Origin: a virus
Taxonomy: Duplodnaviria > Heunggongvirae > Uroviricota > Caudoviricetes
Strand: one strand, 5' to 3'
Virus record (IMG/VR): IMGVR_UViG_2529292919_000008
DNA length: 53,981 nucleotides
In this document: one piece after another, positions 21,139 to 46,655 of the stretch
How the letters are laid out: each line of letters opens with the position of its first letter
Numbering within the stretch: the stretch's first letter is position 1
Program-made: the position numbers and the translations under genes
Notes under the pieces: generated by a model
The model's database searches: none
What the model was told of the DNA's origin: nothing
What the model saw: the letters and a program-made list of their open reading frames with translations, nothing else

Positions 21139-21145
21139 CTTAATA

Positions 21146-21704: not shown

Positions 21705-21731
21705 TGGGCCTCAGAAAAAAGGAGACACGAA

Positions 21732-23594: not shown

Positions 23595-23821
23595 TTTTTC
23601 GAAGGTCTGACACAGTGAGCATTATCAGATTTACAGAATACAGAGGTTCAGGAGGTGCTGGCGCTGTCATGGTGCTCGCTGAATGCATCACCCATTTTTA
23701 CCGTCAGTACGGTACACATGATGGCACGGTCATTGAACTGGATACCGGGAAAAACGTGTTTGTTCTTGAAAATCCCGACGAAGTTCGGCGCAGGATTGAA
23801 CAGGCTCAGAAGGACACTTAA
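23579..23821 (+). CDS. Hypothetical protein
   Basis: ORF between the lysis module and the gp27-like gene. Start uncertain (ATG 23579 or GTG 23615). Confidence 0.3.
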   Translation: MFTELIFRRSDTVSIIRFTEYRGSGGAGAVMVLAECITHFYRQYGTHDGTVIELDTGKNVFVLENPDEVRRRIEQAQKDT

Positions 23822-24321: not shown

Positions 24322-24367
24322 CCACAGCGGCCCGGTTTTCCGGGCCGTCTGATATTCGGGATTTGTA

Positions 24368-26750: not shown

Positions 26751-26753
26751 TTA

Positions 26754-29502: not shown

Positions 29503-30050
29503 GCAACGGTAAACTGGATATTAAGATTGATTTAAGCGCGTATAACACCACGCTGGGGAAACTGATTCGTTCCGTGAAGGACCGGCGCGATCTGATGACG
29601 GCACTTGCGGGTTCCATGCTGGATGCGGTTGAGACTAACTTTGAACAACAGGGCCGCCCGAAATGGATGGGCTGGAGTCCCTCCTATGCGAAGCGACGCG
29701 GCCCCGGGCAAATCCTTCAGAAGTCCGGGCGACTGGCTGCCAGTATCCGCTCTGCGGTTAACAATAACGAGGCCACAGTCGGGACAAACGTCCGTTATGC
29801 CCGGATCCACAACGAAGGCGGCGAAATCCGCCATCAGGCACGGACGCAGAACCTGTATTTTAAACAGTACAAAAACGGCAGCGTCAGCACCCGCTTTGTG
29901 AAAAAGCGCAACAGTAATTTTGTGCAGAGCGCAACGGTCGGAGCGTATACGGTCAACATGCCCGCGCGCCCCTTCCTTCAGCTTGTGCAGGACGACATCG
30001 ACGAGCTGGAGAACACCGCAAACCGCTATTTTGCGCGTGTGATTGACTGA
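29499..30050 (+). CDS. Virion morphogenesis protein (Mu G-like)
   Basis: 183 aa at the Mu G position. Confidence 0.5.
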   Translation: MSNGKLDIKIDLSAYNTTLGKLIRSVKDRRDLMTALAGSMLDAVETNFEQQGRPKWMGWSPSYAKRRGPGQILQKSGRLAASIRSAVNNNEATVGTNVRYARIHNEGGEIRHQARTQNLYFKQYKNGSVSTRFVKKRNSNFVQSATVGAYTVNMPARPFLQLVQDDIDELENTANRYFARVID

Positions 30051-30259
30051 ATGGCGACAAACGCGCTGTAATCGCCTTTGACGACATAAACGCCTCACGG
30101 ATGAGGCATTACAGCACCGCACCCCATAAATGCCGTCAGAATCGTTTTTAAAAGGGTTTTAAAAACGGTTTTATTTTCCCTTTTATCCTTTCCCGTTATG
30201 GCAGGGTGCTGAACACCCTCCACAGTACCCCGTGTTCCCCTTCCGTCATCATACCGCGT

Positions 30260-31375
30260 ATGAAACTGAAAATTGCGGCGTTAAGCCTCGAAATTACTAA
30301 AGCAACCCACAGCGAAATCCAGCTGTTTCCGGCAGGCGAGTTCAGTGCGGTGGATGGTCGCCCACATACCGATGAAGTCGAAAGCGGTAAATGGGTGCTG
30401 ACTGCCGAACTGGCCGCGCAGCTTGTCGCACAGGTGGCAGCCCGTACCACGCCTTTTGTCATTGATTACGAACATCAGACGCTGCGCGCCGTAAACAACG
30501 GCAAGCCCGCCCCGGCGGCGGGCTGGTTCAGCCAGGTGGAATGGCGAGAAGGTTCGGGCCTGTATGCCATCGGTGTGGAGTGGACGGAGAACGCGGCGGC
30601 CATGATTGCCGCCGGTGAGTACAAATTTATTTCCCCGGTATTTGGATACAACCGGCGCGGCGAAGTCATCGAACTGTTACACGCCGCACTGACCAATACC
30701 CCGGCGCTGGACGGTATGGACGCGGTCATGCTGGCTGCGGCCAGCCGTCTGGCGAGTCTGTCAACTGAAACGGAGACCACAACAGTGGATGAAGAACTGT
30801 TAAACGATTTGCTGTCCAGTCTGCGCTGGATGCTTAACCTCCCGGTTACCTCAACGGCGGAAGATATCAAAAACGAGCTGCAAAAGGTCGTTGACATGAT
30901 TTCGAACGGTCAGGGAACGGCGGCGGCATCCGTCAGCCTGCTGGCCCTGCTGAATCAGAAAGACGAGCAAATCGCCAGCCTGTCAGCCAGTGCCTATGAC
31001 CCGTCAAAACACATTTCCCTTGCTGCCTTCGAAGAACTCCAGGGGCGTTATGCCGCACTGGCGCAACAGTCCGGTGAGGCCGAAGCCGGGGCACTGATTC
31101 AGGCGGCGCTGTCTGACGGGCGACTGCTTCCGGCACAGGAAGGCTGGGCGAAAGATTACGCCGGTCGCGATATCAACGGCTTTAAGTCCTGGCTGGAGAA
31201 CGCACCGAAACTTGTTGCGCTCAGTCAGACCCAGACCGGCGGCAAAGCCCCCAAAACGCCGTCGCCTGCCCCGGCGCAGATTAAAACCGGCGATGACGTC
31301 GATGTCGATATCGCCATTTGTTCAATGATGGGCGTTGATCCAGAGGATGTCGCCCGTTACGCAGGAGACGAGTAA
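30260..31375 (+). CDS. Prohead protease / scaffold (Mu I-like)
   Basis: About 371 aa from MKLKIAALSLEI with an Ala/Gln-rich coiled-coil C-terminal half. Upstream of the major head gene. Confidence 0.55.
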   Translation: MKLKIAALSLEITKATHSEIQLFPAGEFSAVDGRPHTDEVESGKWVLTAELAAQLVAQVAARTTPFVIDYEHQTLRAVNNGKPAPAAGWFSQVEWREGSGLYAIGVEWTENAAAMIAAGEYKFISPVFGYNRRGEVIELLHAALTNTPALDGMDAVMLAAASRLASLSTETETTTVDEELLNDLLSSLRWMLNLPVTSTAEDIKNELQKVVDMISNGQGTAAASVSLLALLNQKDEQIASLSASAYDPSKHISLAAFEELQGRYAALAQQSGEAEAGALIQAALSDGRLLPAQEGWAKDYAGRDINGFKSWLENAPKLVALSQTQTGGKAPKTPSPAPAQIKTGDDVDVDIAICSMMGVDPEDVARYAGDE

Positions 31376-31771
31376 ATGGATCGCAATACCCCCTATCGTG
31401 ACGGAGAACTGAACCCGGTGCCGGTTGCCGCTGCGACCGAAATTTTTGGCGGTCATATGGTGGCCGTTAACGCATCCGGTTATGCCGTTCCGGCCAGTGC
31501 CACGGCCTCACAGATTACGCTGGGCGTGTCTGATGGCTGGGCGGATAACAGTACCGGCAGCGATGGCGATGTCACCGTTCTGGTGCGTTGCGGCAAAGAT
31601 TTTCTGATGGTGAACAGCACCTCAGACCCGGTCACACAATCGCAGGTCGGCAAGCTGTGCTACGTGGAAGACAGCGTAACCGTGGCAAAAACCGACAACA
31701 GCAGCGCCCGTCCTGTCGCCGGGAAAGTGATCGGCATCTGTGGCGATGGCGTCTGGGTTCATTTCAGTTAA
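31376..31771 (+). CDS. Hypothetical head protein (Mu Z position)
   Basis: 131 aa between I and the major head gene. Confidence 0.35.
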   Translation: MDRNTPYRDGELNPVPVAAATEIFGGHMVAVNASGYAVPASATASQITLGVSDGWADNSTGSDGDVTVLVRCGKDFLMVNSTSDPVTQSQVGKLCYVEDSVTVAKTDNSSARPVAGKVIGICGDGVWVHFS

Positions 31772-31781
31772 GGAGCAAAAC

Positions 31782-32690
31782 GTGTTAGTCAACGTTAAAA
31801 ACGTCAAACAGATTTTTATCAATCTGAAGGCCACCTTCCAGAAAGCCTTCGACCAGTCGCCAACTGACTGGCAGAAGGTGGCAATGGAAGTGCCATCAAA
31901 CGGCAAGGAAAACGACTACAGCTGGTTAAGTCGTTTCCCGAAAATGCGCGAGTGGATTGGCGACAAGGTCGTTAAATCACTGGCGGCATTTAACTACACC
32001 ATCCGTAACAAGGACTGGGAAGCCACGGTTGAAGTCGATCGTAACGACATCGAGGACGACCAGATTATGGGCTATGCCCTTCAGGCAAAAGGAGCCGGAC
32101 AGTCGGCGGCAGAACTCCCGGCAGATATTGTGGCGTCCCTTATCAGTAACGGTTTTACCAATCCCTGTTACGACGGCCAGATGTTCTTTGATACCGACCA
32201 CCTGGTCGCCGGTAAATCGGTGTCCAATAAAGGCACCAAAAAACTCAAAGTTGGCTCGCTTGCCGAGGCGAAAGCCTCCTACGGTGCCGCCCGTACTGCC
32301 ATGCGCAGCCTGAAAGATGACGAAGGCGCATCCCTCAAAATTCGCCCGAATCTGCTGGTTGTGCCACCGGCGCTGGAAGATGACGCGAACTACCTGATGA
32401 CCGCCGAGAAGTTCCCGGACGGTACGCCGAACCCGTACCGCAGTACCGCCGACGTGCTGGTGATGCCGGAGCTGGCGTCGGATTCTGCGTGGTTCCTGTT
32501 TGACACCACCAAACCGGTGAAACCGCTGATTTATCAGCTGCGTAAAAAGCCTGTTTTTGTGGAGCAGACGGACTACAACAGCGACAACGTGTTCAAGCGT
32601 AAGAAGTTCCTGTTTGGTGCCGAAGCGCGCTGTAACGGCGGTTACGGCTTCTGGCAGATGGCATTTGGTTCTGATGGTACGACGGAGTAA
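31782..32690 (+). CDS. Major head subunit (Mu T-like)
   Basis: AAGGAG then GTG start. About 302 aa at the Mu T position. Confidence 0.6.
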   Translation: MLVNVKNVKQIFINLKATFQKAFDQSPTDWQKVAMEVPSNGKENDYSWLSRFPKMREWIGDKVVKSLAAFNYTIRNKDWEATVEVDRNDIEDDQIMGYALQAKGAGQSAAELPADIVASLISNGFTNPCYDGQMFFDTDHLVAGKSVSNKGTKKLKVGSLAEAKASYGAARTAMRSLKDDEGASLKIRPNLLVVPPALEDDANYLMTAEKFPDGTPNPYRSTADVLVMPELASDSAWFLFDTTKPVKPLIYQLRKKPVFVEQTDYNSDNVFKRKKFLFGAEARCNGGYGFWQMAFGSDGTTE

Positions 32691-32693
32691 TGC

Positions 32694-33035
32694 ATGGAAA
32701 AGGTGATTGAAATTACCGCCCGCCGCGAGGGTTTTCGCCGCTGCGGTGTGGCACACAGCGCAACCACGAAGGCATGGCCTGTGGATGCGTTCACCCCGGA
32801 ACAGCTGGCGGTGCTGAAGGCTGACCCCATGCTGATTGTGGTGGAGCGCGATAAAGCGTCCGGCCAGAACGACGCGGTCCGGGGTGATGAACTGGCCGCA
32901 CAGCTGGATGCCGAACGTCAGAAAGTCAGCGAACTGACGGCGCAGCTGGAAGAAGAACGCCAGAAAGTCAGTGAACTGACCGCACAGCTGAACGCCGCAC
33001 AGAAAACACAAAAAGCGGAGAAAAAGGAGAAGTAA
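32694..33035 (+). CDS. Hypothetical protein with duplicated coiled-coil motif
   Basis: 113 aa with ERQKVSELTAQL repeated twice. Confidence 0.35.
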   Translation: MEKVIEITARREGFRRCGVAHSATTKAWPVDAFTPEQLAVLKADPMLIVVERDKASGQNDAVRGDELAAQLDAERQKVSELTAQLEEERQKVSELTAQLNAAQKTQKAEKKEK

Positions 33036-33038
33036 CCC

Positions 33039-33470
33039 ATGTCTTACGCCACACCGGAACAGTTCATCAGGGCGTTCAGTGAACGCGAGGCGTGCACACT
33101 GACGGATGAAGAGATGACCGGGCTTATCAACGAGGAAAAGCTGGCCTCCGCGCTTGCGCGTGCCAGTGCCCAGATTGATGGCTATCTGGTGGGGCGTTAC
33201 CGGACCCCGTGGCCTGACAGCCCGGGGATTCTGGTGGGTTACTGCTGCGATATCGCCCGTTATCACCTGGCGACCGATTACCGTATCTGCTCAGAAGAAA
33301 TTCAGATGCGCTACCGGGACGCCATCCGCTTTCTGGAGAAAGTCGCGGCAGGACAAATCAACCTCGGGCGGGATACGTCCGGCAGCGTGATCCCGTCATC
33401 GTCACAGGTGCGTATCCGCTCCGGCTCCCGTCAGTTCGGGCGTGAGTCCACGCGGGGAGGTGCATTCTGA
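33039..33470 (+). CDS. Mu gp36-like head-tail connector protein (DUF1320-like)
   Basis: 143 aa from MSYATPEQFIRAFSEREACTL. Position and family recollection. Confidence 0.5.
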   Translation: MSYATPEQFIRAFSEREACTLTDEEMTGLINEEKLASALARASAQIDGYLVGRYRTPWPDSPGILVGYCCDIARYHLATDYRICSEEIQMRYRDAIRFLEKVAAGQINLGRDTSGSVIPSSSQVRIRSGSRQFGRESTRGGAF

Positions 33471-33523
33471 TTACTGAAATTGAACGGGCGCTGGTTGAAC
33501 GTCTGCGTTGTGGTCTGGGGAAA

Positions 33524-34105
33524 ATGGTGCGGGAAGTCCGCACCTATGCCGGTGAACTGGATGAAGACCCGGGCCGGATTGTTCGCAGCCTTCCGGCAGC
33601 CTGGGTGACGTTCGGCGGCATCGCGAAAACCGAACGCTATTCCACGTCACGCCAGAAATACATTGCCACCGGACGCTTTGTGGTTGTGGTGGGTGATTAC
33701 AACACCCGCAGCGAACAGAGCGCCAGACAGGGAGGCACCGTCCGGGATGAGGTCGGTACAAACCTGCTGGTTGAATCCGTCCGTCGCCTGCTGACCGGTC
33801 AGGATTTGGGGCTGGAGATTGATTATTTCGAACCCGGGCGTGTCAGGACGCTGTTTAACACCGGCGTGGCAGAGCGGGCAATGTCCGTGTTTGCCTGTGA
33901 GTTTGATACCCGCTGGGTGGAGCACGCGCTGGAGAACGGCAAATGGCCGGAGCGCGGTGCAGAAGCGGATATGGCTTTCAACCGTTACCACGGCCGTCTG
34001 TCAGACCCCGACCCGGATTTACTGCGAATTGGTACGCAATACGGCGCAGATATCTGTGGTCTGGATGAATTAAGAGAGCAACAGCATGAACAAAATGAAG
34101 GTTAA
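33524..34105 (+). CDS. Mu gp37-like protein
   Basis: Synteny. Real start is probably a non-ATG codon near 33470, since the open frame extends upstream. Confidence 0.4.
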   Translation: MVREVRTYAGELDEDPGRIVRSLPAAWVTFGGIAKTERYSTSRQKYIATGRFVVVVGDYNTRSEQSARQGGTVRDEVGTNLLVESVRRLLTGQDLGLEIDYFEPGRVRTLFNTGVAERAMSVFACEFDTRWVEHALENGKWPERGAEADMAFNRYHGRLSDPDPDLLRIGTQYGADICGLDELREQQHEQNEG

Positions 34106-34319
34106 GGCGGCTCCCGGGATGAAGTTCCCGATGGAGGATAACGCCCGGAAATACATCACCACGGAAGCGGTGATCGTTGAAAACACCGCTTATTACCGGC
34201 GCGCTGTTCAGGATGGTGACCTGATTCTGGTGGCTGAAGAGCCTGAAACGGCAGAACAGGACACCGGACCAGAAAAAGCGAAGGTGAAGAAAGAGAAACA
34301 GGTGGGATCCGATGAGTGA
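34086..34319 (+). CDS. Mu gp38-like small protein
   Basis: 77 aa just upstream of the sheath gene. Confidence 0.4.
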   Translation: MNKMKVKAAPGMKFPMEDNARKYITTEAVIVENTAYYRRAVQDGDLILVAEEPETAEQDTGPEKAKVKKEKQVGSDE

Positions 34320-35733
34320 AATTCAGTTTGACACCATTTCGGGCAGTATCCGTAAGCCCGGTGTGCATTTTGAGTTTAATACCCGGCTGGCCGTTAACAC
34401 GTTGCCGGGTAACGAACAGCGTGTTCTGGTGATTGGCCCGATGCTGCCTGATGGCACCGCCACCCCCCTGAATGCGATTTCTGTGTATTCCGAAGACGAA
34501 GCGGATTTGTATTTCGGGGCCGGTTCACTGGCCGCAGCAATGGCGCGCGCAGCCATTAACGCCAACAGCTATCTGCAACTGGATGTTATCGGTATTGCAG
34601 ACGGTGGTGCAGGAAAAGCAGCAACAGGCGCAGTTAAAGTCACCGGCACTGCAACCAGCAGCGGTACGCTGTCGGTATGGATTGCTGGCGAGCAGATCGC
34701 CATTAATGTGGACGTCGGGGATGAACCGTCGAAAATCATTCCGGCACTGGTGACGGCAATGACGCAGACGCCATCGCTTCTGGTCACGGGGGAATACAAA
34801 TCTGACAGCTCTCAACTGACAGTGACCGCCCGGACCAAAGGTACCTGGGGGAATGATATCACCCTGTCGGTATCCACCACTGCAACCGGCCTTGTAGTGG
34901 CTACCACGCCGATGGCGAGCGGCGAAATGGACCCGGATATTCAGCCCGCACTTGATGCGGTCTTTGCTGCCGGTCACAACATTCTGATTTGTCCGTTCAG
35001 TACCACGCCAGCCCTTGCCGCCCTGAAGCAGCACCTGGAGAAAACCGGGAACGCGATGGAACAGCGTGGCGCGATTGGTTGTGCGGGCTGGACAGGTAGT
35101 CTGGGAAACGGGATCACCCTGGCAGCCGGTGTGAACAGCGGGCGCGTGTCTGTCCCCTGGTATCGTGGTTCTGTGATGCTTCCTGCTGTGCTGGCCGCCA
35201 TCTACGGCGCAGTAATGGCGAGCGAAGAAGACCCGGCACGCCCGCTGAACTCGCTGGCGCTGTCCGGGCTGGATGTGGTCGCCATGTCACAGCGCGAAAG
35301 CCGTAACGAGCAGGAAAGCGCCCTGCATAACGGCCTGACACCGGTTGAGGTTGGACCGGGTAATACGGTGCAGATTGTGCGTGCGGTCAGTACCTACACG
35401 GTGAACGCTCAGGGTGTGGCTGATGTCTCGTTACTGGATATCACGTCCATCAGAACACTGGACTACACCCGCAAGGCGTGCCGCGAACGTATCAGCCTTC
35501 GCTTCCCGCGTGAAAAACTCAGCACCCGAACCATCGCAAAAGTGGAAAGCGAACTGTATGACGTGCTGCTCAAGCTGGAGGAGTCTGAAATTCTGGAGAA
35601 TGTGGAAGCGAATAAGGCAAAACTGCGCGTTCAGCGAAACGGGAAAGATGCAAATCGCCTGGACTGCGCGATCCCTGCCGACGTGGTTAACGGCCTGCAT
35701 GTGTTTGCCGGTCGCATCGACATGATTTTGTAA
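34312..35733 (+). CDS. Contractile tail sheath protein (Mu L-like)
   Basis: 473 aa immediately upstream of the tube gene. Confidence 0.8.
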   Translation: MSEIQFDTISGSIRKPGVHFEFNTRLAVNTLPGNEQRVLVIGPMLPDGTATPLNAISVYSEDEADLYFGAGSLAAAMARAAINANSYLQLDVIGIADGGAGKAATGAVKVTGTATSSGTLSVWIAGEQIAINVDVGDEPSKIIPALVTAMTQTPSLLVTGEYKSDSSQLTVTARTKGTWGNDITLSVSTTATGLVVATTPMASGEMDPDIQPALDAVFAAGHNILICPFSTTPALAALKQHLEKTGNAMEQRGAIGCAGWTGSLGNGITLAAGVNSGRVSVPWYRGSVMLPAVLAAIYGAVMASEEDPARPLNSLALSGLDVVAMSQRESRNEQESALHNGLTPVEVGPGNTVQIVRAVSTYTVNAQGVADVSLLDITSIRTLDYTRKACRERISLRFPREKLSTRTIAKVESELYDVLLKLEESEILENVEANKAKLRVQRNGKDANRLDCAIPADVVNGLHVFAGRIDMIL

Positions 35734-35745
35734 GGAGCCTGATAA

Positions 35746-36120
35746 ATGTCCCTGAAAGAATATATCGGCTCGATTGTGTTGGAAATTGACAGCCAGGAAA
35801 TCGAGATCACCGACCTTGATGTTCAGATCAACACCGGGCGAAAGCTGGTCAAGACCATGAACAAAACCGGCAGGGCTAAAGGCTTTGCCCGTGGCATTGC
35901 CACCTACGAACTGTCCGTTTCGGCGGTTATTCCTGATACCAACGAGCCGGACTGGGAAAATCTGGAAGGTGTGAAAATCTCGCTGTACCCGCTCAGTAAC
36001 AGCGGTAAACGCACCTCTTATCTGGACTGCTTCACAACCGAAGTGGGTGAGAAATACACCGTCGATAATGAAGCGAAAATTGATATCAAAATGGCTGCAC
36101 TCAGGAAGGTGGAAGGATGA
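35746..36120 (+). CDS. Tail tube protein (Mu M-like)
   Basis: 124 aa directly after the sheath. Confidence 0.6.
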   Translation: MSLKEYIGSIVLEIDSQEIEITDLDVQINTGRKLVKTMNKTGRAKGFARGIATYELSVSAVIPDTNEPDWENLEGVKISLYPLSNSGKRTSYLDCFTTEVGEKYTVDNEAKIDIKMAALRKVEG

Positions 36121-36500
36121 CGATTATCGCTACACAGACCGGCGAACTGTCCGATGGCCTGGTTTTTAACGGCACCATTCATAAAAACTTTGAGCTGCGT
36201 CTGCCGGTCATGCGTGATAACGGGCAGGCACTGGAAGAAACTGAAGAACGCTTTCAGACAGTGGACGGCTTCGCGGCGGATTATTACTACCGCTGTGCGG
36301 TAATGGCGGCAACGCTGGTCCGTCTGGGGGATATTCCGCAGGAAGAACTGACGGCGGAGCTGTTGCACGACAACATGACGCCGGAAGATTTTAATATTCT
36401 GCTGGCATCACGCAACGTCCTGAAGGTAAAGCGGAGCGGCGGGAATCCCGGCTCGCCGGACTCCGGCTCGCAGTCCTTATCCTCGGGCGCTACGGAATAA
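36117..36500 (+). CDS. Tail assembly chaperone (Mu gp41-like)
   Basis: 127 aa between tube and tape measure. Confidence 0.45.
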   Translation: MTIIATQTGELSDGLVFNGTIHKNFELRLPVMRDNGQALEETEERFQTVDGFAADYYYRCAVMAATLVRLGDIPQEELTAELLHDNMTPEDFNILLASRNVLKVKRSGGNPGSPDSGSQSLSSGATE

Positions 36501-36514
36501 CTGAAGAACAAATT

Positions 36515-36676
36515 ATGACCATGAGCCGTCCCGAGCTGGACGGCTGGCTTGCCGCCGTTGACAGGCTGAACGGCGGCGGCTCAGGAAGAAAGGACACCTC
36601 ACAGACCACCCGCCAGTCATTTAAATCCCTCAGAAAGAAACGCAGAAAAGGTAAACAGAAAAATGGCCGGTAATTT
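36515..36676 (+). CDS. Small basic protein upstream of tape measure
   Basis: 53 codons, MTMSRPELDGWLAAVDRLNGGGSGRKDTSQTTRQSFKSLRKKRRKGKQKNGR. Overlaps the tape-measure start. Confidence 0.3.
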
Positions 36677-38936
36677 CAAAGTTGGCATGACCCTGACTGC
36701 GAAGGACGAAGCCTCGCAGGTTCTGGAAAAGGGACAAAAACAGGTTATCAAAGCCACCGAAGGTGTAACAAAGGCAACCCGGAAGGCAGGCGCAGAGCAG
36801 ACGCGTACCGGGCAGGAAAGCGTTAACAGCACGAAAAAGGCGGCAAAAGAGATACAGCGTGCCGCCCGTGCCCGGGAAACGCTCGGTATTCGTGCAGAAC
36901 GCGAGATCCGGCGTGAAATTTATCAGACGGTTGCCAGCTATAACCGTCTGGCCCGCGCCGGTTTTGAATCTGCGCAGGAGCAGGAGCGCGCCATGCAGGC
37001 CACCCGGGAAAAAGCCCGGGCACTCAAGCGTGAACTGGATGGCGTCACTCAGGCTCAGATGAAGATGGCGAAAACGCCTGTTATCCCTGAACGGGGGCGT
37101 TTTGCCCGTGCGGCTGCATTTGGCGGGAATGCCGTGACAATAGGTGGTGGTATCGCGGCAGGTGCTGCCATTATGGCGCAGCCGGTCAAAAAGCAGATGA
37201 GCTACGAACGCCAGCTGGCAATGATGGCCAATACCGCCTTCAGTGATGGCGGGCTGGAGGGGCGCAAAGCCGGTCTTGAGCAGATGAAAAGCAGCATCCG
37301 TAACGCGGTGACCTATGGTGGCGGCACAAAAGAGGATGCAGCCGAAACACTGGATGCCCTGCTGAAAGATGGCGGTATTTCATTTGACACAGCCAGCAAG
37401 TGGCTACCTGAACTGATGAAATACGCCACGGCTTCTGGTGCATCAGCGACAGACCTGGCTAATGTGATGCTTAAGGGCAAAAAGACCTTTGGATTCCGGG
37501 ATGAAGATATTTCCACTGTCCTGAATATGGCGATTGCGGCAGGAAAAGAAGGCAGCTTTGAACTGAACGATATGGCCCGCTGGTTATCCCAACAAATGGG
37601 ATCTGCGTCAGCTGCGGGAATGAAAGGCAAGGATGATTTCGTCAAGATTCTTGCGCTGAATGAAGCCGCCGCGATCACGGCTGGTAGCAGTGATGAAGCA
37701 GGGAATAACGTGGTTAACCTGCTGGCTAAACTGACCAGCCATGATATTGAAACTGCGGCAAAGAGCATTGATTACAACGGTAAAGGGATTGATTTTTCAG
37801 GTACGCTGACTGAAGCGCGCAAGCATGGGCTGGATCCGATAGACGCGCTTTCCAGCCTGATAGATAAAATCGTTGCCAACGATAAACGCTATCAGGAGTT
37901 GCAAAAGAAACTGTCATCTGCCCGGGATAAAGGTGAACAGACGGCTGTTTACGATTCGATGGCAAAACTCCTTGAAGGCTTTGGTGTCGGGAAACTGGTT
38001 GCAGACCGTCAGGCGTTGATGGCGTTGTTAGCCTACCGTAACAACCCGGAATACCGTAAGAAGGTTGAAGACGCGATTAATCAGCAACGTACCCTGCCGG
38101 AAGGCCAGCGCGCGGGGGATGTTGATTTCAGATTCATATCCGGCCTCAATGATTTTAAAACCGAACAGGCTAAAAACACGCTTGAATTTTCACAAATGGA
38201 CAGCATGAAAAAGCTGGCTGATGCGTCCGGTACTGTGGCCGATGCCATAAGCTGGGCGGGTGAAAAGTTTCCGGGGCTGACCACGGCGGTGGTGGGTGCC
38301 ACAACTGCGATTGAAGCGATGACCGCAGCGGCTCTGACATGGGCCGGGATCAAAATCCTGACCGGGGGTAAACCCGGTGGCAAGACTGGCGAGGTTGTTG
38401 GTGATGTAATTGAAAACACGGTCAAAAAAGGCAAAGGATTTAAATTCCCCGGTATTGCCGGTGGCCTGCTTTCTTTAGGTGGCACTGTTACGGCACTGGC
38501 CACCGCAACCAGCCCGGAGGAAGACGCCGCCGTCGAAGGAAGCGAAGAACGCTGGAAACGCATCCGCGCCCGATACACCCAGGAAGAAATCGACGCCGCC
38601 CGCAAAAAATACCAGCCATGGTGGCAGTTTGGGGAAGGCTATTCCACCGAAAACGAAGAATGGTTGAGGCGCTGGGAGGAAGACAGGAAAAAAGCCGCAT
38701 CTGATGCCCTGCCATCACCGGCGCAGGTTAACAAAGCCGCAGGAAACACAACGCCTGAACCGGCATCAACGCAACCCGGACGCATCACCCAGCCGGAATA
38801 CCTCACGCACTGGGGGCCACCTGCCAGCCCCATTAATTTCACCACACAACTGGTGCTCGATGGTCAGGTCGTGGCGGAGGCAGTGAACAAATACAACCTT
38901 CAGGACGGTAACAGAGGTACGGGAGGAACTTACTGA
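36663..38936 (+). CDS. Tail tape measure protein
   Basis: 757 aa, Ala/Gly-rich and coiled-coil, between the chaperone and the N-like gene. Confidence 0.7.
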   Translation: MAGNFKVGMTLTAKDEASQVLEKGQKQVIKATEGVTKATRKAGAEQTRTGQESVNSTKKAAKEIQRAARARETLGIRAEREIRREIYQTVASYNRLARAGFESAQEQERAMQATREKARALKRELDGVTQAQMKMAKTPVIPERGRFARAAAFGGNAVTIGGGIAAGAAIMAQPVKKQMSYERQLAMMANTAFSDGGLEGRKAGLEQMKSSIRNAVTYGGGTKEDAAETLDALLKDGGISFDTASKWLPELMKYATASGASATDLANVMLKGKKTFGFRDEDISTVLNMAIAAGKEGSFELNDMARWLSQQMGSASAAGMKGKDDFVKILALNEAAAITAGSSDEAGNNVVNLLAKLTSHDIETAAKSIDYNGKGIDFSGTLTEARKHGLDPIDALSSLIDKIVANDKRYQELQKKLSSARDKGEQTAVYDSMAKLLEGFGVGKLVADRQALMALLAYRNNPEYRKKVEDAINQQRTLPEGQRAGDVDFRFISGLNDFKTEQAKNTLEFSQMDSMKKLADASGTVADAISWAGEKFPGLTTAVVGATTAIEAMTAAALTWAGIKILTGGKPGGKTGEVVGDVIENTVKKGKGFKFPGIAGGLLSLGGTVTALATATSPEEDAAVEGSEERWKRIRARYTQEEIDAARKKYQPWWQFGEGYSTENEEWLRRWEEDRKKAASDALPSPAQVNKAAGNTTPEPASTQPGRITQPEYLTHWGPPASPINFTTQLVLDGQVVAEAVNKYNLQDGNRGTGGTY

Positions 38937-40285
38937 TGGGCTGGGCTGAAAACCTGCAAAACGCTTCCTTTCGTGGCGTGCAGTTTGAGGTGCTGAATAC
39001 TGACGAACAAATCAGCCGCGACCATGCGGTCTATGAATACCCGTTTGTTGACGGGGCGGATTTGCACGACCTCGGACGCAAGGCGCGACCGTTCCGCATG
39101 ACGGCGTTCCTGTGGGGCGATGACTATGAATATAAACTCGGAAAACTGACCGCCGCCCTGGATGAAGGCGGCGATGGTGAACTGATTCATCCGGTTTATG
39201 GCTCTGTGCCGTCGGTGATTGTGACCGGCTACAGCATCCGCCATGACGCAGAAAGCCCGGACAGCTGCACCATTGACATGAGTTTTCTGGAAAACCGCAC
39301 CGGTAGCGCGTTGTTCAGCACCCCGTTACCGGAGCTGTTCGCGCAACAGTTGTTTGATGAACTGGACACTTTACAGGCGCGGTTAAGTGACTTTTTTGAT
39401 GCCGTTACTGCACCTTTAAATACCGTTAACAGCATGATTAAAAAAGCCCAGACAGTGCGTGCCACACTGGTGAATACCCTGCTGTCGTTCAAAAGTGATT
39501 TTGTCTCCACTGTCGATAATATCGTGTCACTGGCAGGCGAACCCGGAAAATTTATCAATGGACTGGCAGAGGTGCTGGAAATCCACACATCAGATGTCGG
39601 GCAACCGGTGCCGGTTCTGCAACGTGTTGATTCTGCCACCCGGACCGGGTTGGCAGGAGAGACGACCGTCGCCAGTTCTGCGACAGTGATGAACTGCTGG
39701 AATAAGGTCATCACTGATATGGATGAATTTGTTGCGCTGCCTGTTGCCCTGGTCAGTGGCGATAAAGTACCGGAGGTGGTACTTCCTGCGGATGCCTCGC
39801 CAGACGATGTGCAGGATGTGAAAGCAGTTTACGCAACACAGGCCGCATCTGAACTGGCCAGTGTTGCAATGGCGATACTGGTTGATGATGCGCAGTCAGA
39901 ACAGCTTATACCGGCGGATATCGGGCGACTGGTCGGGGATGTGCGCACCCGCTTACAGGCTGCCATCACGCTGTTCCGTGAACGCTATGAAGGCGAACGC
40001 GAACGGATAACCGAAACCGCATCACCGCTGGGGCTGATGTACCCGGAAATCATTCAGAGCATGAAAAACGTGGCGGCATCCGTGCAGGATGTCGGCCTGC
40101 TGGTTCTGTCACGCCGCCCACCGCTGACGCAGAAACAGGTGCAGGCGGACAGCTGTCTGCTGTTGCTGGCGTGGCAGTGGTACGGTGATTACAGTCGTGC
40201 GGCAGAACTGCAACGTCTGAACCCGCAGCTGCGTGACCCGAACAACATAACCGCCGGGGTGGTCATTAATGCCTACGCAAAATAA
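38936..40285 (+). CDS. DNA circularisation protein N-like
   Basis: 449 aa at the Mu N position after the tape measure. Confidence 0.6.
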   Translation: MGWAENLQNASFRGVQFEVLNTDEQISRDHAVYEYPFVDGADLHDLGRKARPFRMTAFLWGDDYEYKLGKLTAALDEGGDGELIHPVYGSVPSVIVTGYSIRHDAESPDSCTIDMSFLENRTGSALFSTPLPELFAQQLFDELDTLQARLSDFFDAVTAPLNTVNSMIKKAQTVRATLVNTLLSFKSDFVSTVDNIVSLAGEPGKFINGLAEVLEIHTSDVGQPVPVLQRVDSATRTGLAGETTVASSATVMNCWNKVITDMDEFVALPVALVSGDKVPEVVLPADASPDDVQDVKAVYATQAASELASVAMAILVDDAQSEQLIPADIGRLVGDVRTRLQAAITLFRERYEGERERITETASPLGLMYPEIIQSMKNVAASVQDVGLLVLSRRPPLTQKQVQADSCLLLLAWQWYGDYSRAAELQRLNPQLRDPNNITAGVVINAYAK

Positions 40286-41495
40286 CGAAGACAAAATCAG
40301 CCTGGTCATTGCCGGAAGGTCGCATTCTGACTGGAACAGTTATCGTATTGACAGCGATTTCCTGAAAGCTGCCGACGGCTGGCAGCTTCAGCTGGGGCTG
40401 CCTGAAAAGGTGTTCCCGGCGGATATCGTCCGGGGCGCACAAATCCGGTTGCAGGTGGGAGACGAAACGGTGCTCAGTGGGCGCATAGACAGCGTGCGCC
40501 GCAGTGTATCCCGTCAGAGCTGCACGCTGACCCTGTCCGGGCGTGATGATGCCGCCATCCTGGTGGACTGTGCCGCGCCAGTGTTCAGCGCCAACCAGCT
40601 GACGCTGGACGAGGTCATCGACAGGATTGTCAGACCGCTGGGGATACAGCGCATCCGTATTCAGGCGTCCGGTGTGTCACGTAATGACAAAGTCGTTATT
40701 GAGCCGGGGATGCGTGCGTGGGATGCACTGGCCAAAGCTGCCGCCGGTCGCGGCTTATGGCCGTGGTTTGAGCCTGACGGGACGCTGGTTGTGGGTGGCC
40801 CTGACTACACCACCACGCCGGTGGATACGCTGATTCTGAAGCTGAACGGCACCGGGAACAACGTGATGGAGCTGGACGATACCCGGTCCATTAACGGCTG
40901 TTTCTCCGAACTTACTGTGCTGGCCCAGAGCCACGCCCGCCGCGCAGACAGCAAGAAACAGGTGGCCGTGGTGCCGCTGGATATCTGGAACGAGGACGGC
41001 AGCGTGCGCACATTGTCCGGGCAGGACAGCGGTAATACGGACAGTGGCCAGACAGGCATTCATAACATGAAAGCCGTTGCCACCGACCCCACCGTGGATT
41101 ATTACCGCCCGCAGATAATCACCCAGGGCGACACCAGCAATCTGGAGCAGGTGAACTGGCGCGCAAAAAAAATGATGAGTGATGCCCGCCTGTCGGGGCT
41201 GGATATCGTCGCGCTGGTTGCAGGTCATCGCACGGCAGATGGTGTTCTGTGGCAGCCCGGCCAGCGGGTGCGGATTGTCAGCGAACTCCACGGCATTGAT
41301 GCCATCTTTTTCCTGATGGGGCGTGAGTTCAGCGGAGGCCGGAACGGGCAGACAACCCGGCTCCGCTTTAAGGAGGACGGCGTGTGGATACCTGATGCCT
41401 TCCCGCGCGAGAAGAAACGCCATCACCGCAGGGGCAAAAAGAAAAAGAGGTCGCCATTGTTAAGGTCTGGGAGAAATGATGTGGGACAAAGTTAA
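40269..41495 (+). CDS. Tail / baseplate hub protein (Mu P-like)
   Basis: 408 aa at the Mu P position. Confidence 0.6.
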   Translation: MPTQNNEDKISLVIAGRSHSDWNSYRIDSDFLKAADGWQLQLGLPEKVFPADIVRGAQIRLQVGDETVLSGRIDSVRRSVSRQSCTLTLSGRDDAAILVDCAAPVFSANQLTLDEVIDRIVRPLGIQRIRIQASGVSRNDKVVIEPGMRAWDALAKAAAGRGLWPWFEPDGTLVVGGPDYTTTPVDTLILKLNGTGNNVMELDDTRSINGCFSELTVLAQSHARRADSKKQVAVVPLDIWNEDGSVRTLSGQDSGNTDSGQTGIHNMKAVATDPTVDYYRPQIITQGDTSNLEQVNWRAKKMMSDARLSGLDIVALVAGHRTADGVLWQPGQRVRIVSELHGIDAIFFLMGREFSGGRNGQTTRLRFKEDGVWIPDAFPREKKRHHRRGKKKKRSPLLRSGRNDVGQS

Positions 41496-42129
41496 TCAGC
41501 GCGTACAGCAGGCACTGGCCGCCGTTCGCCAGGCATTCAGGGTGGTGACCGGTACGGTGGACAGTTCGACCAAAGTACAGCTGCTTCAGCTTAACGGGCT
41601 GGCAGGCGAACAGCTGGACGGTGCGGAGTATTTTCAGCATTACGGCCTCACCACATCCCCGCCGCCCGGCTCAATGGGTATTGCCGTTCCGCTGAACGGC
41701 AATACCTCTCATACTGTCGTGGTGGCCACAGAGCACGGCGCATATCGTCTGACGGAACTGAAACCCGGGGAAGTGGCCCTGTATACCGATGAAGGCGCGA
41801 AAATCGTACTGAAGCGCGGACGGGTTATTGAAACCGAATGTGACGTTTATCGCGTGAAATGCAAACGCTACGAGGTTGAGGCAGAGGAGAACGCCACATT
41901 CACGACACCGTTACTGACAGCCAGTGACAGGCTGACGGTGGAAGGCAAAATCACCGGCAACGGTGGCATGGCCATCAGTGGGGGCAAGGGATACACTGCC
42001 ACCTTTGAAGGCAATATCAACCATGTGGGTGGAGTGATTACCTCCGTTGACGTCACCATTAATGGCGTTAAAATCGGAACGCACAAACATCCAACCCCAC
42101 ACGGCATGTCTGACACGCCGGTTAATTAA
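41476..42129 (+). CDS. Baseplate assembly protein (Mu gp45 / V-like spike)
   Basis: 217 aa; synteny. Confidence 0.55.
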   Translation: MMWDKVNQRVQQALAAVRQAFRVVTGTVDSSTKVQLLQLNGLAGEQLDGAEYFQHYGLTTSPPPGSMGIAVPLNGNTSHTVVVATEHGAYRLTELKPGEVALYTDEGAKIVLKRGRVIETECDVYRVKCKRYEVEAEENATFTTPLLTASDRLTVEGKITGNGGMAISGGKGYTATFEGNINHVGGVITSVDVTINGVKIGTHKHPTPHGMSDTPVN

Positions 42130-42182
42130 GTGCTGAACACCCTCACCTGATTCTGACCTGTCCATGCTGCCAGACTGGCGGC

Positions 42183-42533
42183 ATGGACCAGACGATTTCA
42201 CCTGCAACCGGCGACTACGAACGCCGTCGGATTTTTACCCTTCATAACGCGGTTTATCTGCGACTGGCGACGCCGCTTGGCAGTTACTGGGCGGATGCGT
42301 CGCTGGGGTCACGCCTGCACGAGCTGAAGCGGGAAAAAGACGTTTCCCGTGTTCATAAGCTTGCGGCGCAGTATGCCAGCCAGGCACTTCAGCCCCTGCT
42401 CGATGACGGGCGGGCAAAATCCATTACCGTTGACACAAAACCGGGGCAGCGCGGCTGGTTGTTGCTGTTAATCACCGTCACGGATAACGCGGGCACACCG
42501 CAGACGTTTGAACACCCTGTGAGGATTATGTAA
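42183..42533 (+). CDS. Baseplate wedge protein (Mu gp46, W/gp25-like)
   Basis: 116 aa; synteny. Confidence 0.5.
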   Translation: MDQTISPATGDYERRRIFTLHNAVYLRLATPLGSYWADASLGSRLHELKREKDVSRVHKLAAQYASQALQPLLDDGRAKSITVDTKPGQRGWLLLLITVTDNAGTPQTFEHPVRIM

Positions 42534-43612
42534 TGCCGTTTCCTGTTCCGGGCGTTGCTGAAAACACAGAACGCCAGCTACGTGATATCGCTAACGCCCT
42601 GCCGGGCGAAACCATCGACACCGGCGCTGACAGCGATTACCGCATTCGTGCAAATGCCGTATCCGGCGTGGCGGACGGACTGTATATGCATCAGGGGTGG
42701 ATACTCCGTCAGGTGTTTCCTGATACGGCAGACCCTGAATATCTGGAGTTGCACTGCCGCACGCGCAATGTTTTTCGTAAAAAAGCAACGGCCTCATCCG
42801 GTCCGGCAGTGATTACCGGCACACCCGGTAAGACGCTGCCAGCCGGTGCGGAAATTCGTGGTGAAGGTGTCAGCGTGGCCACCGCAGCAGACTGCACCGT
42901 CGGTGATGAAGGCAGCGCAGAGGTGACGGTAAAAAGCACTGCCACGGGTGCACAGACGAATGCATCCACGACGCAGACGGCAACGCTGGTCAGCCCACCT
43001 GAAGGCATCAACAGCACGGTGACGATTAAATCCCTGACCGGCGGAACGGACAGGGAAAGCGACGCCGACCTGCTGGCGCGTTATCTGGATATTCTGCGCA
43101 GGCCGCCCGCTGGCGGTAATAAATATGATTACAAACGCTGGGCGCTGGAAGTGGATGGCGTTACGTCTGCGTATGTGGAGCCGTTGCGTCGTGGACTGGG
43201 GACGGTTGATGTGGCCATTACGTCAGCCAATGACCTCCCTTCGCAGGAACTGATTAATGCCGTGCTGGCACATATTGAGGAAGTCCGCCCGGTGACAGCG
43301 AAGGACACGATGGTGCTGGCCCCGACGAAAAAAGCCGTTGATTTCGTTGTCCGGGTAAAAACCAGTGGTCTTACTGTTGAACAGATAAAACCACAGATAA
43401 CTGAAGTTATCACGGATTTTATGAACCGGCTGGAGCCGGGGCAGGAATTAATTATTTCACAACTGGAAACTCAGATTTCATTAATTTCTGGCGTCAGTGA
43501 CCGGCGAATTATTATGCCGTCAGATAATGTAAAAGCAGTTGTCAATGAATCCACATGGGAGTGGCTGCGTCCGGGGAGTATTGATATCCAGCCATTTCCC
43601 CGGGAGAGTTAA
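42533..43612 (+). CDS. Baseplate J-like protein (Mu gp47)
   Basis: 359 aa; synteny. Confidence 0.65.
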   Translation: MPFPVPGVAENTERQLRDIANALPGETIDTGADSDYRIRANAVSGVADGLYMHQGWILRQVFPDTADPEYLELHCRTRNVFRKKATASSGPAVITGTPGKTLPAGAEIRGEGVSVATAADCTVGDEGSAEVTVKSTATGAQTNASTTQTATLVSPPEGINSTVTIKSLTGGTDRESDADLLARYLDILRRPPAGGNKYDYKRWALEVDGVTSAYVEPLRRGLGTVDVAITSANDLPSQELINAVLAHIEEVRPVTAKDTMVLAPTKKAVDFVVRVKTSGLTVEQIKPQITEVITDFMNRLEPGQELIISQLETQISLISGVSDRRIIMPSDNVKAVVNESTWEWLRPGSIDIQPFPRES

Positions 43613-43615
43613 TAC

Positions 43616-44188
43616 ATGAATACGGTTGATTTATTTCGTGCCATGTTACCACCGGTCAGCTATGACCCGAACGGGAAATATATTTCAGCAGAACTGAACG
43701 CAGAAGCAGCCATTATGGATGAAGTAAAAGCGTCAGCTGCACGAGTGCTTGCATCTGTCACACCATTTTACGCATCCATGACGCTGTCTGACTGGGAACG
43801 AGTGTATGGAGTAATACCCCGCGACGGTGCCACACAGCAGGAACGCCGAGAAAATATTCTTATAAAGATGGCTGCAACTGGTGGGTTATCTATCCCTTAT
43901 TTTAAACAACTTGCAGCCAGCCTCGGGTACACCATAACAATTACTGAACTTCATCCATTCAGAGCGGGGATAAACCGATGTGGTGATCGTCTCTATATAA
44001 CAGATGCCCGATGGATTTGGCAGGTTAATGTCACAGGAAGCAGAACGCCAGCCTACAGATTCAGAACCGGAGTATCTGCTGCCGGGGAGCCGTTACTTTC
44101 CTTTGGTGCCCCTGTACTGGAAGAAACATTTAAAGACCTTAAACCCGCTTTTACTTATTGCCATTTCACATATAAGGAGGAGCAGTAA
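43616..44188 (+). CDS. Tail protein (Mu gp48, DUF2313-like)
   Basis: 190 aa; synteny. Confidence 0.5.
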
Positions 44189-45012
44189 TGCAAAATCTGA
44201 TGCCCCCGATAAATACACCGGATCAATTGTTTCATGATGGTGACCCCACTCAGGGGATAGAAGGAACCCTCGTGACTGCTGGTTATTTAAACAATCAGCA
44301 GGGAGCAACCCGTGATTTACAGCAGGAACTCCTTAATGTTCTTGGTGGTGCACATATTCAACCTGACCCCAAAAAAACGGATCAGCTACTTACCGCGCTT
44401 CGCGCGTTGCTGTTAAGCCGCAAAAATCCGTTTGGCGATATCAAATCGGACGGCACAGTACCAACGGCTCTCGAAAACCTTGGTTTGGGAGAAGGAGCTC
44501 CAGCTATTGGCGTTCCGTTCTTCTGGCCGTCCGCTGCAATGCCAGATACCGTAATCGATAGCTGGTCCGGTATGGTGTTTTTGAAGTTCAACGGCGCGAA
44601 ATTCTCTGCCACTGATTACCCTGTGCTGGCGAAAGTGTTTCCGGCGCTGGCATTACCTGACGCACGCGGTGATTTCATTCGTATCTGGGATGATGGGCGC
44701 GGGATTGATGTCGGACGTACCCTACTTTCAGGGCAATCACACACAATTATGGATCATGCACACAATATGGAATTGTGGACGGGGGACGGGCTTGCCGCAG
44801 GAAGTGCACGGGAAGGAGTAAACCCAGGAATACTGGCTACATATGGTGACGGGGGAATAGTTAAAACGGACGAACCCGGTCTTAATGTGCCTTCCTCACT
44901 ACGAGCTCTTAGCTCTCGTAGTGTTAAACGTTATGGTGACATTAGTGGAAATGTAGGTACAGAAACCCGTCCACGAAATATTGCATTTAACTTTCTGGTG
45001 AGGGCTAAATAA
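44188..45012 (+). CDS. S: Tail fibre protein S (constant Sc region plus currently expressed variable Sv region)
   Basis: 274 aa. A gix-like crossover site lies inside it at codons about 94-102 ([10 protein letters not shown]). Confidence 0.65.
44468..44493 (+). promoter_or_regulatory. gix-like recombination site (left)
   Basis: CTCTCGAAAACC-TT-GGTTTGGGAGAA: 12-2-12 dyad that resembles Mu gix and Salmonella hix as recalled. Confidence 0.55.
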
Positions 45013-45605
45013 TGAAACCTGTTTTTGATGAAAATGGGCTGGCTACAGTGCCGGGCGATATGCGTTGTTTTTATTATAATGCAGTAACGTATGAATATAC
45101 CGGCTGGTCTGATGAATATATTAATACTGGCGTAAGTATGCCCGCCTGTTCCACTGGTATTGACCCGGGCGAAAACATTCCGGGAAAAGTGGCAGTATTT
45201 ACGGGTAAGGGATGGAGCCATGAAGAAGACCATCGCAATGAGACCGTTTACTCAACTGAAAATGGCGCAGCTGTTACAGTGGATTATATCGGTGCCATCA
45301 AAGACGGTTATGTCACGCTTTCACCGTTAACGCCATACGATAAATGGGATGGTGAGAAATGGGTGACGGATACCGAGGCACAGCATAGCGCCGCAGTAGA
45401 AGCGGCAGAAGCACAGCGCCAGTCGCTGATTGATGCTGCAATGGCTTCCATCAGTCTGATTCAACTGAAATTACAGGCCGGGCGGAAGCTGACGCAGCCA
45501 GAAAACACCCGACTTAACGCTGTGCTGGATTATATTGACGCGGTGACGGCAACAGATACCAGCACAGCGCCGGACGTCATCTGGCCTGAACTGCCGGAGG
45601 CGTAG
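45012..45605 (+). CDS. U: Tail fibre assembly protein U
   Basis: C-terminal ...LNAVLDYIDAVTATDTSTAPDVIWPELPEA, which I recognise as a tail-fibre-assembly (Tfa) C-terminus. Confidence 0.65.
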   Translation: MKPVFDENGLATVPGDMRCFYYNAVTYEYTGWSDEYINTGVSMPACSTGIDPGENIPGKVAVFTGKGWSHEEDHRNETVYSTENGAAVTVDYIGAIKDGYVTLSPLTPYDKWDGEKWVTDTEAQHSAAVEAAEAQRQSLIDAAMASISLIQLKLQAGRKLTQPENTRLNAVLDYIDAVTATDTSTAPDVIWPELPEA

Positions 45606-46017
45606 GCCATTCAATATCTGGCGCACCGGAAGTATCGACCAGCTCCAGTGCGTCCAGATAATCCAGCCACAAATTATATTGCGCCAGTTCCTCACCTTTC
45701 AGGCGACCAATCGCCGCTTTACCAGGCCATTGCTTACTGTTTATGTATTCGTTGACCTGATTAATCAATTGCTGCTTTTCCAGTTCGGCTGCGGCAATTT
45801 GTTCCTCATGAGTTGGCGGTGGAATATCAATCCATGCAGGCATTCCGTCGATGACACCTCTGTATTTTCCTTCTGGTGCTTCCTTCATAAATTCGGCGGC
45901 AACAGTGTCGTCAATTTCGATTCCATCACCGGGCCATTCGCCGGATTCCTGATAAGCGATTTTAAGCTCCACAGGGAAAAACGCATTTTTATCGGCACTG
46001 AAAATATATTTCTGCAT
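45577..46017 (-). CDS. Alternative tail fibre assembly protein U' (inverted orientation)
   Basis: MQKYIFSADKNAFF... with Tfa-type C-terminus ...LWLDYLDALELVDTSGAPDIEWPTPP. Convergent with and overlapping U. Confidence 0.6.
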   Translation of the reverse strand: MQKYIFSADKNAFFPVELKIAYQESGEWPGDGIEIDDTVAAEFMKEAPEGKYRGVIDGMPAWIDIPPPTHEEQIAAAELEKQQLINQVNEYINSKQWPGKAAIGRLKGEELAQYNLWLDYLDALELVDTSGAPDIEWPTPPAVQAR

Positions 46018-46019
46018 TT

Positions 46020-46378
46020 CTACCGTCCTATCGAAATATAACTGAATCTGTATTGCTGTGAGATATCACTGGTTGCCACACGCCACGCTGAATTACTGAT
46101 ATGTTCAAAATTTACAGACAAAACCTGCGGGGCAGGATTCGACGGGTCTGACTGAACGGCATCAGACATAACACTGACTGAAACCATCGGCTGATTAGGG
46201 AATGGTATAGGGAAGTGTCCACTGATAAAGCGGGTCGTGTTTCCTGAAAAAGTGCCAAACTGAACAATATATCCACCTGGTAGCCTGAACCATCCCGAAC
46301 CAGAAGCGAATGCTCCCATATCCGGTATCTGATTATCTCCTGTGCCCACATCCCTTTTCGCCGCTTCTCCTAAACCAA
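46020..46378 (-). CDS. Alternative tail fibre variable segment S'v (promoterless cassette)
   Basis: Reading frame continues through the right gix-like site (...GLGEAAKRDVGTGDNQ...), matching the GLGE junction in S. Has no upstream constant region in this orientation. Confidence 0.5.
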
Positions 46379-46390
46379 CGTTTATGAAAA
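46365..46390 (+). promoter_or_regulatory. gix-like recombination site (right, inverted)
   Basis: TTCTCCTAAACC-AA-CGTTTATGAAAA. Its reverse complement shares TTGGTTT(G/A)GGAGAA with the left site, and the central dinucleotide is inverted (AA vs TT). Confidence 0.55.
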
Positions 46391-46444
46391 TGCAGAAATA
46401 ACGAGCAAATGGCATCATTCCTGCTTTTGTCAGGGTGATCTACC

Positions 46445-46540
46445 ATGTTTATAGGCTATGTACGCGCATCAACAAATGACCAGGACACCGATTTACAACG
46501 CAATGCGTTGAACTGTGCAGGATACGAGCTGATTTTTTGA
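46445..46540 (+). pseudogene. gin: Truncated gin-type serine invertase (N-terminal 31 codons only)
   Basis: MFIGYVRASTNDQDTDLQRNALNCAGYELIF then stop. Matches the Gin/Hin/Pin N-terminus including the catalytic-serine region (YVRxST). A full invertase is about 190 aa. Confidence 0.8.
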
Positions 46541-46569
46541 GGGTAAATCATCAGCATGAGACTAATAAT

Positions 46570-46655
46570 TTAGCGTCCAATTCTGGGCTTTTTGGTTGCG
46601 CTCTCTCCGCCCAGAATTGTGCGCCAATTAGCCCAGAAAAAAACGCGAAGTTACA
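46570..46655 (+). promoter_or_regulatory. Right end (attR) with transposase-binding-like repeats
   Basis: TTCTGGGC at 46581-46588, inverted CGCCCAGAATTG at 46608-46619 and GCCCAGAAAAAAACGCG at 46631-46647. Element ends ...TTACA at 46655. Confidence 0.6.

Follow-up and report, generated by a model that had tools for sequence, protein, structure and literature searches.

Whether an invertible tail-fibre cassette can still switch after losing its own invertase gene is the question raised by the right end of a Mu-like transposable prophage in the IMG/VR virus record IMGVR_UViG_2529292919_000008 (53,981 nt, analysed as a whole and referred to below as the window). The cassette comprises the fibre gene S with its variable part Sv, the chaperone genes U and U', and the alternative fibre end S'v; the invertase gene next to it is reduced to a stub of 31 codons. 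A first-pass annotation of the window had considered host-range switching to be either locked or dependent on an invertase supplied in trans. For the family of prophages sharing the stub, an invertase other than their own is favoured by three pairs of near-identical elements which occupy the same insertion site but carry the cassette in opposite orientations; individual hosts may still be locked. The locus very probably represents a non-autonomous Pin/Gin-type inversion module of a Mu-like prophage, which has kept its cis-acting signals and is flipped in trans.

Opposite cassette orientations at shared insertion sites

In each of the three same-site pairs, the breakpoints of the inversion lie inside the crossover sites. 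The prophages of strains 20KM0223N (L008) and MEI148-20EC (L009), located next to yeiP, show 100% identity of the flanks over 1.6 kb and 3.8 kb and 100% identity of the inverted segment over 1,874 bp, the aligned pieces overlapping by 15 bp at each crossover site. Two IMG/VR loci with the same cassette type as the window (L017 and L021) share one site, with identities of 99.97% in the flanks and 99.95% in the inverted segment. The third pair, inserted in eutC, consists of an IMG/VR locus (L020) and the reference sequence of strain E2348/69 (L002); here, the flanks are 100% and the inverted segments 99.9% identical. The state opposite to that of E2348/69 was also found at other insertion sites, namely in L006 and L011. 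In both natural states the S frame is intact through NLGLGE (253 versus 227 aa, and 249 versus 253 aa), and both crossover sites and both alternative open reading frames (ORFs) are intact in nearly all stub-bearing loci tested. The opposite orientations within near-identical flanks at one and the same site indicate that a locked state of the cassette does not hold for the family as a whole.

The anatomy of the segment in the window (Table 1) agrees with the first-pass description, according to which S and U read rightward, U' and S'v read leftward, and two inverted sites bracket about 1.9 kb. When the whole window was searched with the 12-2-12 pattern TTCTCNNAAACCNNGGTTTNNGAGAA, allowing at most three mismatches and using 100 shuffles as control, the pattern matched exactly twice, with no match expected from the shuffles. 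The two sites form a 20-nt inverted repeat with 90% complementarity, and their core dinucleotides agree, reading TT (left) and AA (right) on the plus strand. Inverted 26-bp sites with matching central dinucleotides, as typical of Gin/Pin/Cin/Hin-type invertible segments, are present. In relatives, the inverted segment begins and ends exactly at these sites. Position 46371 of the right site is T in the window only and C in the e14 element of Escherichia coli K-12 and in the other stub-bearing loci examined (TTCTCCTAAACC versus TTCTCCCAAACC). This is the sole mismatch within the inner half-sites; since the site consensus varies here, we expect it to have little effect.

The constant part of S, from 44188 to about 44480, is 92–99% identical among relatives, while the variable parts, which start at about 44482 in the window, differ. 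The S'v frame, listed as an ORF from 46020 to 46418 on the minus strand, lacks its own start codon and reads through the right crossover site as ...GLGE/AAKRDVG...; its expression is predicted only as a fusion to the constant part (Sc-S'v) after inversion. Inverting the window segment in silico indeed resulted in an intact S' of 216 aa, as compared to 274 aa in the present state. The proposal that both frames pass through the sites at a shared GLGE junction was thus borne out: inversion swaps the fibre C-termini together with the chaperones and keeps the reading frame, both in the simulated inversion of the window and in the two natural states of relatives. U and U' are convergent, with a tail-to-tail overlap of 29 nt (45577–45605), and an overlap of 28–29 nt is likewise annotated in relatives and in e14.

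The invertase remnant and its distribution

The stub encodes MFIGYVRASTNDQDTDLQRNALNCAGYELIF, followed by a stop codon that is caused by an extra T in a T run; automatic annotation tags it as an incomplete pseudogene. Homology to invertase genes continues weakly to about 46555, its recognisable part ending between 46540 and 46556, so that the gene breaks off after about 100–110 bp and is fused directly to the right-end block attR. The end of the prophage at 46655 lies 115 bp past the stub stop codon, and homology to all other family members stops there at GTTACA. Searching the whole window by tblastn with Mu Gin, Com and Mom as queries revealed no Gin homologue besides the stub, no Com and no Mom. 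Neither an intact serine invertase gene beside the segment nor a full-length invertase frame was found, and the gin-com-mom right-end module of Mu, D108 and SfMu is missing from the window. The first-pass annotation had therefore described the length of the stub, its stop, the short right end and the absence of com and mom correctly, and only its labels gin and gix are loose. The stub matches PinE of e14 in 27 of 31 residues, with 90% nucleotide identity over 174 nt comprising the right site and the 5' region of the invertase gene; the corresponding values for Mu Gin are 24 of 31 residues (77%, Gin residues 1–31) and about 69% nucleotide identity over the site-to-stub region. By these similarities, the module is of the e14 pin/pix type rather than of the Mu gin type.

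The stimulating site of Mu is reportedly situated within the invertase gene, to go by the title of a study by Kahmann et al. from 1985. The stub aligns without gaps to the 5' region of Mu gin, with the stretch at 46466–46529 retained in full, and the blocks best conserved in this comparison are two 15-bp G...C cores, GCATCAACAAATGAC (46466–80) and GTGCAGGATACGAGC (46515–29), whose midpoints lie about 95 and 144 bp away from that of the right site. Wild-type enzymes of this recombinase family require for their activity a 65-bp enhancer, which has a Fis site at each end and is normally located about 100 bp from one crossover site (PMC3798978). From size, position and alignment we infer that the retained 100 bp or so of the invertase gene still carry a Fis-dependent recombinational enhancer. 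From the right crossover site up to the end of the prophage, the DNA would then be almost entirely cis-acting, consisting of a spacer, the predicted enhancer and attR.

Comparison with related prophages, as suggested in the first-pass annotation, revealed the same invertase/attR junction in 22 further loci; together with the window, the 23 loci occupy 14 distinct insertion sites. Those inside genes include phn, eutC (strain E2348/69), scpC, mhpT and the capsid gene interrupted in the window. Of 5,426 complete E. coli genomes, 19 have the entire 272 bp extending from the right site to the prophage end. A more divergent copy occurs in strain 210221272, and five further copies, all with the stub, are contained in IMG/VR. 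In every stub-bearing case examined, the remnant breaks off at an identical point and is joined to the same right-end block, which starts at 46561 in the window. The identical junction at 14 insertion sites indicates that the invertase gene was lost before the lineage spread by transposition. A sequencing or frameshift artefact as the cause of the stub is ruled out by the occurrence of the same stub and junction in the 22 other loci. No relative with an intact invertase beside this attR was found; among the 72 attR-bearing E. coli genomes, most of which were not inspected, the three sampled have either the stub or fixed fibres. Two scans of the GTDB species-representative genomes gave no match to the junction or to attR.

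Some of the related loci deviate from this arrangement. In E. coli Ec55 (L015) and STEC313 (L016), the attR block is 88–93% identical and fixed fibre genes run almost to the end, without an invertible cassette or an invertase remnant; Ec55 keeps a 300-nt fragment of the constant fibre part. E. coli OkiPb01676 (L004, locus 1–4800) has the same stub and right end (93% identity) behind a different baseplate/fibre module of the DUF2612 type, which matches that of phage vB_EcoM-611R5 (L012); about 1 kb separating the end from pphA has no annotation. In vB_EcoM-611R5, the invertase itself comprises only 104 codons, and this "phage" record extends into host genes. As compared to window positions 46391–46450, L017 and L021 have a clearly different allele of the spacer between site and start codon, while stub and attR are almost identical, which indicates a mosaic joint within the old invertase promoter region. 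The cassette of E. coli 160-11H1 (L010, locus 1990–3530) is scrambled; its chaperone fragments, frameshifted and partial, point in both directions and its fibre end is truncated, possibly owing to decay or to further rearrangements. Left of the cassette in L006, L007, L009, L010 and L011, the NCBI automatic annotation gives several short tail-fibre genes or fragments the name "integrase", apparently a misnomer that was passed on within a protein family.

Source of the recombinase and alternative explanations

Invertases of resident prophages are known to act on segments of other elements. PinQ (of Qin) and PinR (of Rac) invert the e14 segment, as PinE does; PinE inverts the Mu G segment, complements Mu gin mutants and inverts the Salmonella H segment, on which Fin of Fels-2 acts as well (PMC12529663). 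A pinE-like gene at a coverage of at least 80% is present in 1,179 of the 5,426 complete E. coli genomes. A second pin-5'-like locus, detected as a match to the right site and the pin 5' region, occurs in 7 of 14 stub-bearing clones as compared to about 17% of all genomes (binomial p of about 0.004), a co-occurrence which is weak evidence in that the strains are mutually related and divergent invertases were left out of the count. It might point to a preferential maintenance of the family in strains with a related invertase.

Several observations weigh against flipping in trans. An invertase acting in trans was not identified in any of the stub-bearing genomes, among them E2348/69, 20KM0223N and MEI148-20EC, by a similarity search that gives a single place per record, and there is none in the 54 kb visible of the window's host. 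In strain E2348/69, a second close match to the pin 5' region is lacking and the cassette has one and the same orientation in the four complete assemblies, the flipped eutC copy deriving from a separate IMG/VR record; flipping may therefore be rare or absent in some hosts, and is possibly host-dependent. The frameshifted and scrambled cassette of L010 shows decay in part of the family. Orientation differences were taken from public assemblies. The enhancer was assigned by alignment and position only, and most random breakpoints in an invertase gene of 555–580 bp also keep a 5'-proximal enhancer, so that its retention is no proof of selection. The lack of an invertase in the window, the single orientation in the E2348/69 assemblies and the state of L010 would equally be expected of a cassette that froze after loss of its invertase, the stub, the sites and the silent U' and S'v being decaying leftovers without function; the four amino-acid changes of the stub relative to PinE, one of which adjoins the catalytic serine, also fit a dead gene. 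For the family as a whole such a relic is improbable, because the three near-identical pairs differ by precise inversion only and both sites and alternative ORFs have stayed intact nearly throughout. It can still apply to individual hosts devoid of a compatible invertase, possibly including that of the window, whose own copy may then be locked. We regard it as still less credible, indeed very unlikely, that RecA-dependent homologous recombination involving the short inverted repeats, or choices made in assembly, produced the orientation differences in place of site-specific recombination. This explanation could draw on the 15–20 bp of inverted identity shared by the sites, on the use of assemblies and on the missing acting enzyme; however, efficient homologous recombination requires repeats much longer than 15–20 bp, and the same clean event is seen in three independent lineages, with no other change introduced. 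Moreover, the sites that exactly enclose the breakpoints are identical to proven Pin substrates (PMC12529663).

A further alternative concerns the origin of the module only and has no bearing on how it works today. A Mu-like ancestor with fixed fibres might have captured an e14-like inversion module with a right breakpoint that fell inside pin, in which case no deletion in situ took place. The relatives Ec55 and STEC313, with the same attR and fixed fibres, are in line with such a capture, as are the identical gene order of e14 (J, YmfQ, Stf, Tfa, Tfa, Stf, Pin) and the confinement of high similarity to non-Mu prophages to the stretch from about 60 bp left of the left site to about 170 bp right of the right site. 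The cassettes also differ widely among prophages that are otherwise 97–99% identical, so module exchange is frequent. A single deletion in situ, however, accounts equally well for the direct fusion to attR, and no intermediate of either kind was found; capture is a serious possibility, to which we incline slightly less than to its opposite.

Flipping in trans remains the preferred reading of the present-day module. Inversion occurs in prophages without an invertase, its breakpoints lie in sites identical to known Pin substrates, and the repeat of 15–20 bp is too short for efficient homologous recombination; hence, an enzyme encoded elsewhere best explains the flips. A serine invertase from another resident element, of the PinE, PinQ/PinR or Gin/Cin type, would bind both crossover sites and assemble with Fis on the enhancer in the stub. 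Strand exchange at the central dinucleotide would replace Sv and U by S'v and U', and virions induced after the flip would bear a different receptor-binding tip.

The carrier prophage, known inversion systems and implications

The prophage that carries the cassette is Mu-like, transposable and apparently complete. The ORF at 11628–13670 codes for a 680-aa transposase with the Pfam domains Mu-transpos_C (E = 5e-17) and HTH_Tnp_Mu_1 (E = 1e-10), and that at 13689–14582 for a MuB-like AAA protein (AAA_22 and TniB); Phage_Mu_Gp48 and Baseplate_J were also found. A MuA-type transposase, a MuB-like ATPase, TG...CA ends, a 5-bp duplication and many unrelated insertion sites are features of Mu-like transposable phages, and all are present. 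The motif TTCTGGGC occurs in three copies within 150 bp of each prophage end, at 10267, 10341 and 10392 on the left and at 46581–88 (+), 46609–16 (–) and 46631–38 (–) on the right, which amounts to 6 of the 9 occurrences in the window, versus 2.4 expected; the pattern matches that expected of terminal transposase-binding sites, and the repeats presumably have this role. When 24.7 kb of the prophage were compared by megablast with 50,697 phage records, genome-wide similarity to the genus Muvirus (Mu, D108, SfMu) was absent. The best record covers at most 3% of these first 24.7 kb and no listed record is of the Mu type, which excludes a close relationship of the prophage to Mu, D108 or SfMu.

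The Mu-like element is inserted in another prophage, of about 57% G+C and with HK97-like head genes, where it interrupts a gene coding for a protease-capsid fusion (9593–10249 and 46656–47941, minus strand). Removal of the element and of one AGTAC copy in silico restored a 645-aa protease-capsid ORF on the minus strand; the outer prophage was therefore inactivated by this transposition.

Table 1 Features of the invertible cassette and its carrier prophage in the window
Feature	Position	Strand	Basis
Mu-like transposable prophage carrying the cassette, 36,406 bp, ends TGT...ACA	10250..46655	+	in-silico excision; Pfam
Target-site duplication AGTAC, left copy (5 bp)	10245..10249	.	direct repeat flanking the Mu-like prophage
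Target-site duplication AGTAC, right copy (5 bp)	46656..46660	.	direct repeat flanking the Mu-like prophage
S, tail-fibre gene in its present state, 274 aa	44188..45012	+	ORF list; simulated inversion
Left crossover site, CTCTCGAAAACC TT GGTTTGGGAGAA, inside S	44468..44493	+	26/26 identical to left e14 P-segment site
Invertible segment between the two core dinucleotides, ~1.9 kb	44481..46377	.	simulated inversion; natural inversions in relatives
U, tail-fibre assembly chaperone for the present orientation, 197 aa	45012..45605	+	Pfam Caudo_TAP, E = 1.6e-27
U', chaperone for the alternative orientation, 146 aa	45577..46017	-	Pfam Caudo_TAP, E = 4.6e-34
S'v, alternative fibre C-terminus	46020..46376	-	Pfam Gp53-like_C; simulated inversion
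Right crossover site, TTCTCCTAAACC AA CGTTTATGAAAA	46365..46390	+	25/26 identical to right e14 P-segment site
Invertase stub, 31 codons and stop	46445..46540	+	ORF list; tblastn; alignment
Predicted Fis-dependent recombinational enhancer	46466..46529	.	gap-free alignment to Mu gin 5' region; published enhancer size and position
Junction of invertase remnant and conserved right-end block	46540..46560	.	identical in all stub-bearing relatives
attR, conserved right-end block, 95 bp, three TTCTGGGC motifs mirroring the left end	46561..46655	.	comparison of relatives

Among known systems, the P segment of e14 (stfP-tfaP-tfaE-stfE-pinE) resembles the cassette in its crossover sites (Table 1), in the order of baseplate J, YmfQ/gp48, fibre, chaperone, reversed chaperone, reversed fibre C-terminus and invertase genes, and presumably in being open to enzymes of other prophages, as documented for e14 (PinQ, PinR). 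However, e14 has a full 184-aa PinE followed by mcrA, whereas the window has a 31-codon stub fused to a transposition end; e14 is a defective element of the integrase type located at icd, unlike the apparently complete transposable carrier in the window; and the variable fibre and chaperone genes of the window are mostly different alleles. With the G segment of Mu (and of D108 and SfMu), the locus shares the setting in a transposable phage with an invertible S/U-U'/S' block at its right end. Like Mu, it has a left crossover site inside S which joins a constant N-terminus to alternative C-termini, an invertase gene just outside the right site with 67–68 bp between site centre and ATG, and 5-bp target duplications. 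In contrast to the stub of the window, gin is intact in Mu, D108 and SfMu and is followed by com and mom. The fibre of the window is shorter than that of Mu (274 versus 504 aa), the stub is nearer to pinE than to gin, and DNA similarity at the megablast level to cultured Mu-type phages is lacking. Cases of invertases acting in trans, i.e., PinE on Mu gin mutants, PinQ and PinR on e14 and Fin on the H segment, likewise involve the enzyme of one element flipping the segment of another, as would presumably apply to the window. The targets in those cases either have an invertase gene of their own or are laboratory mutants, whereas the family described here spreads naturally without an invertase gene and would depend wholly on other elements of its host.

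Knowledge of invertible fibre cassettes and of cross-acting invertases goes back to the 1980s, and the mechanism itself is not new, so that the present finding is a modest addition to a well-known system. What is new is a natural counterpart of the laboratory situation "Mu gin-minus on a Pin-plus host", i.e., a family at 14 insertion sites which has cis-acting parts only and, as judged from its two orientations, still flips. Tentatively, one might go further and propose that a family of transposable phages has left its host-range switch to resident prophages, that the invertase remnant was selected as a cis-acting Fis enhancer and also serves as a right homology arm for cassette swaps with e14-like elements, and that the receptor recognised by the virion is set by the Pin-type invertases of the lysogen; this combined view is a speculative one. 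By analogy with PinQ and e14, a flipped fibre might also act within the lysogen as a defence that blocks adsorption.

If flipping in trans is the correct explanation, an invertible segment without a neighbouring recombinase gene should not be scored as dead, and the host range of an induced prophage can hinge on unrelated elements in the same cell. Short 5' invertase pseudogenes annotated as "hypothetical protein, incomplete" may then be retained enhancers. The stub-bearing family also provides a clean natural system for studying the enhancer requirement and the donor specificity of Pin-family enzymes.

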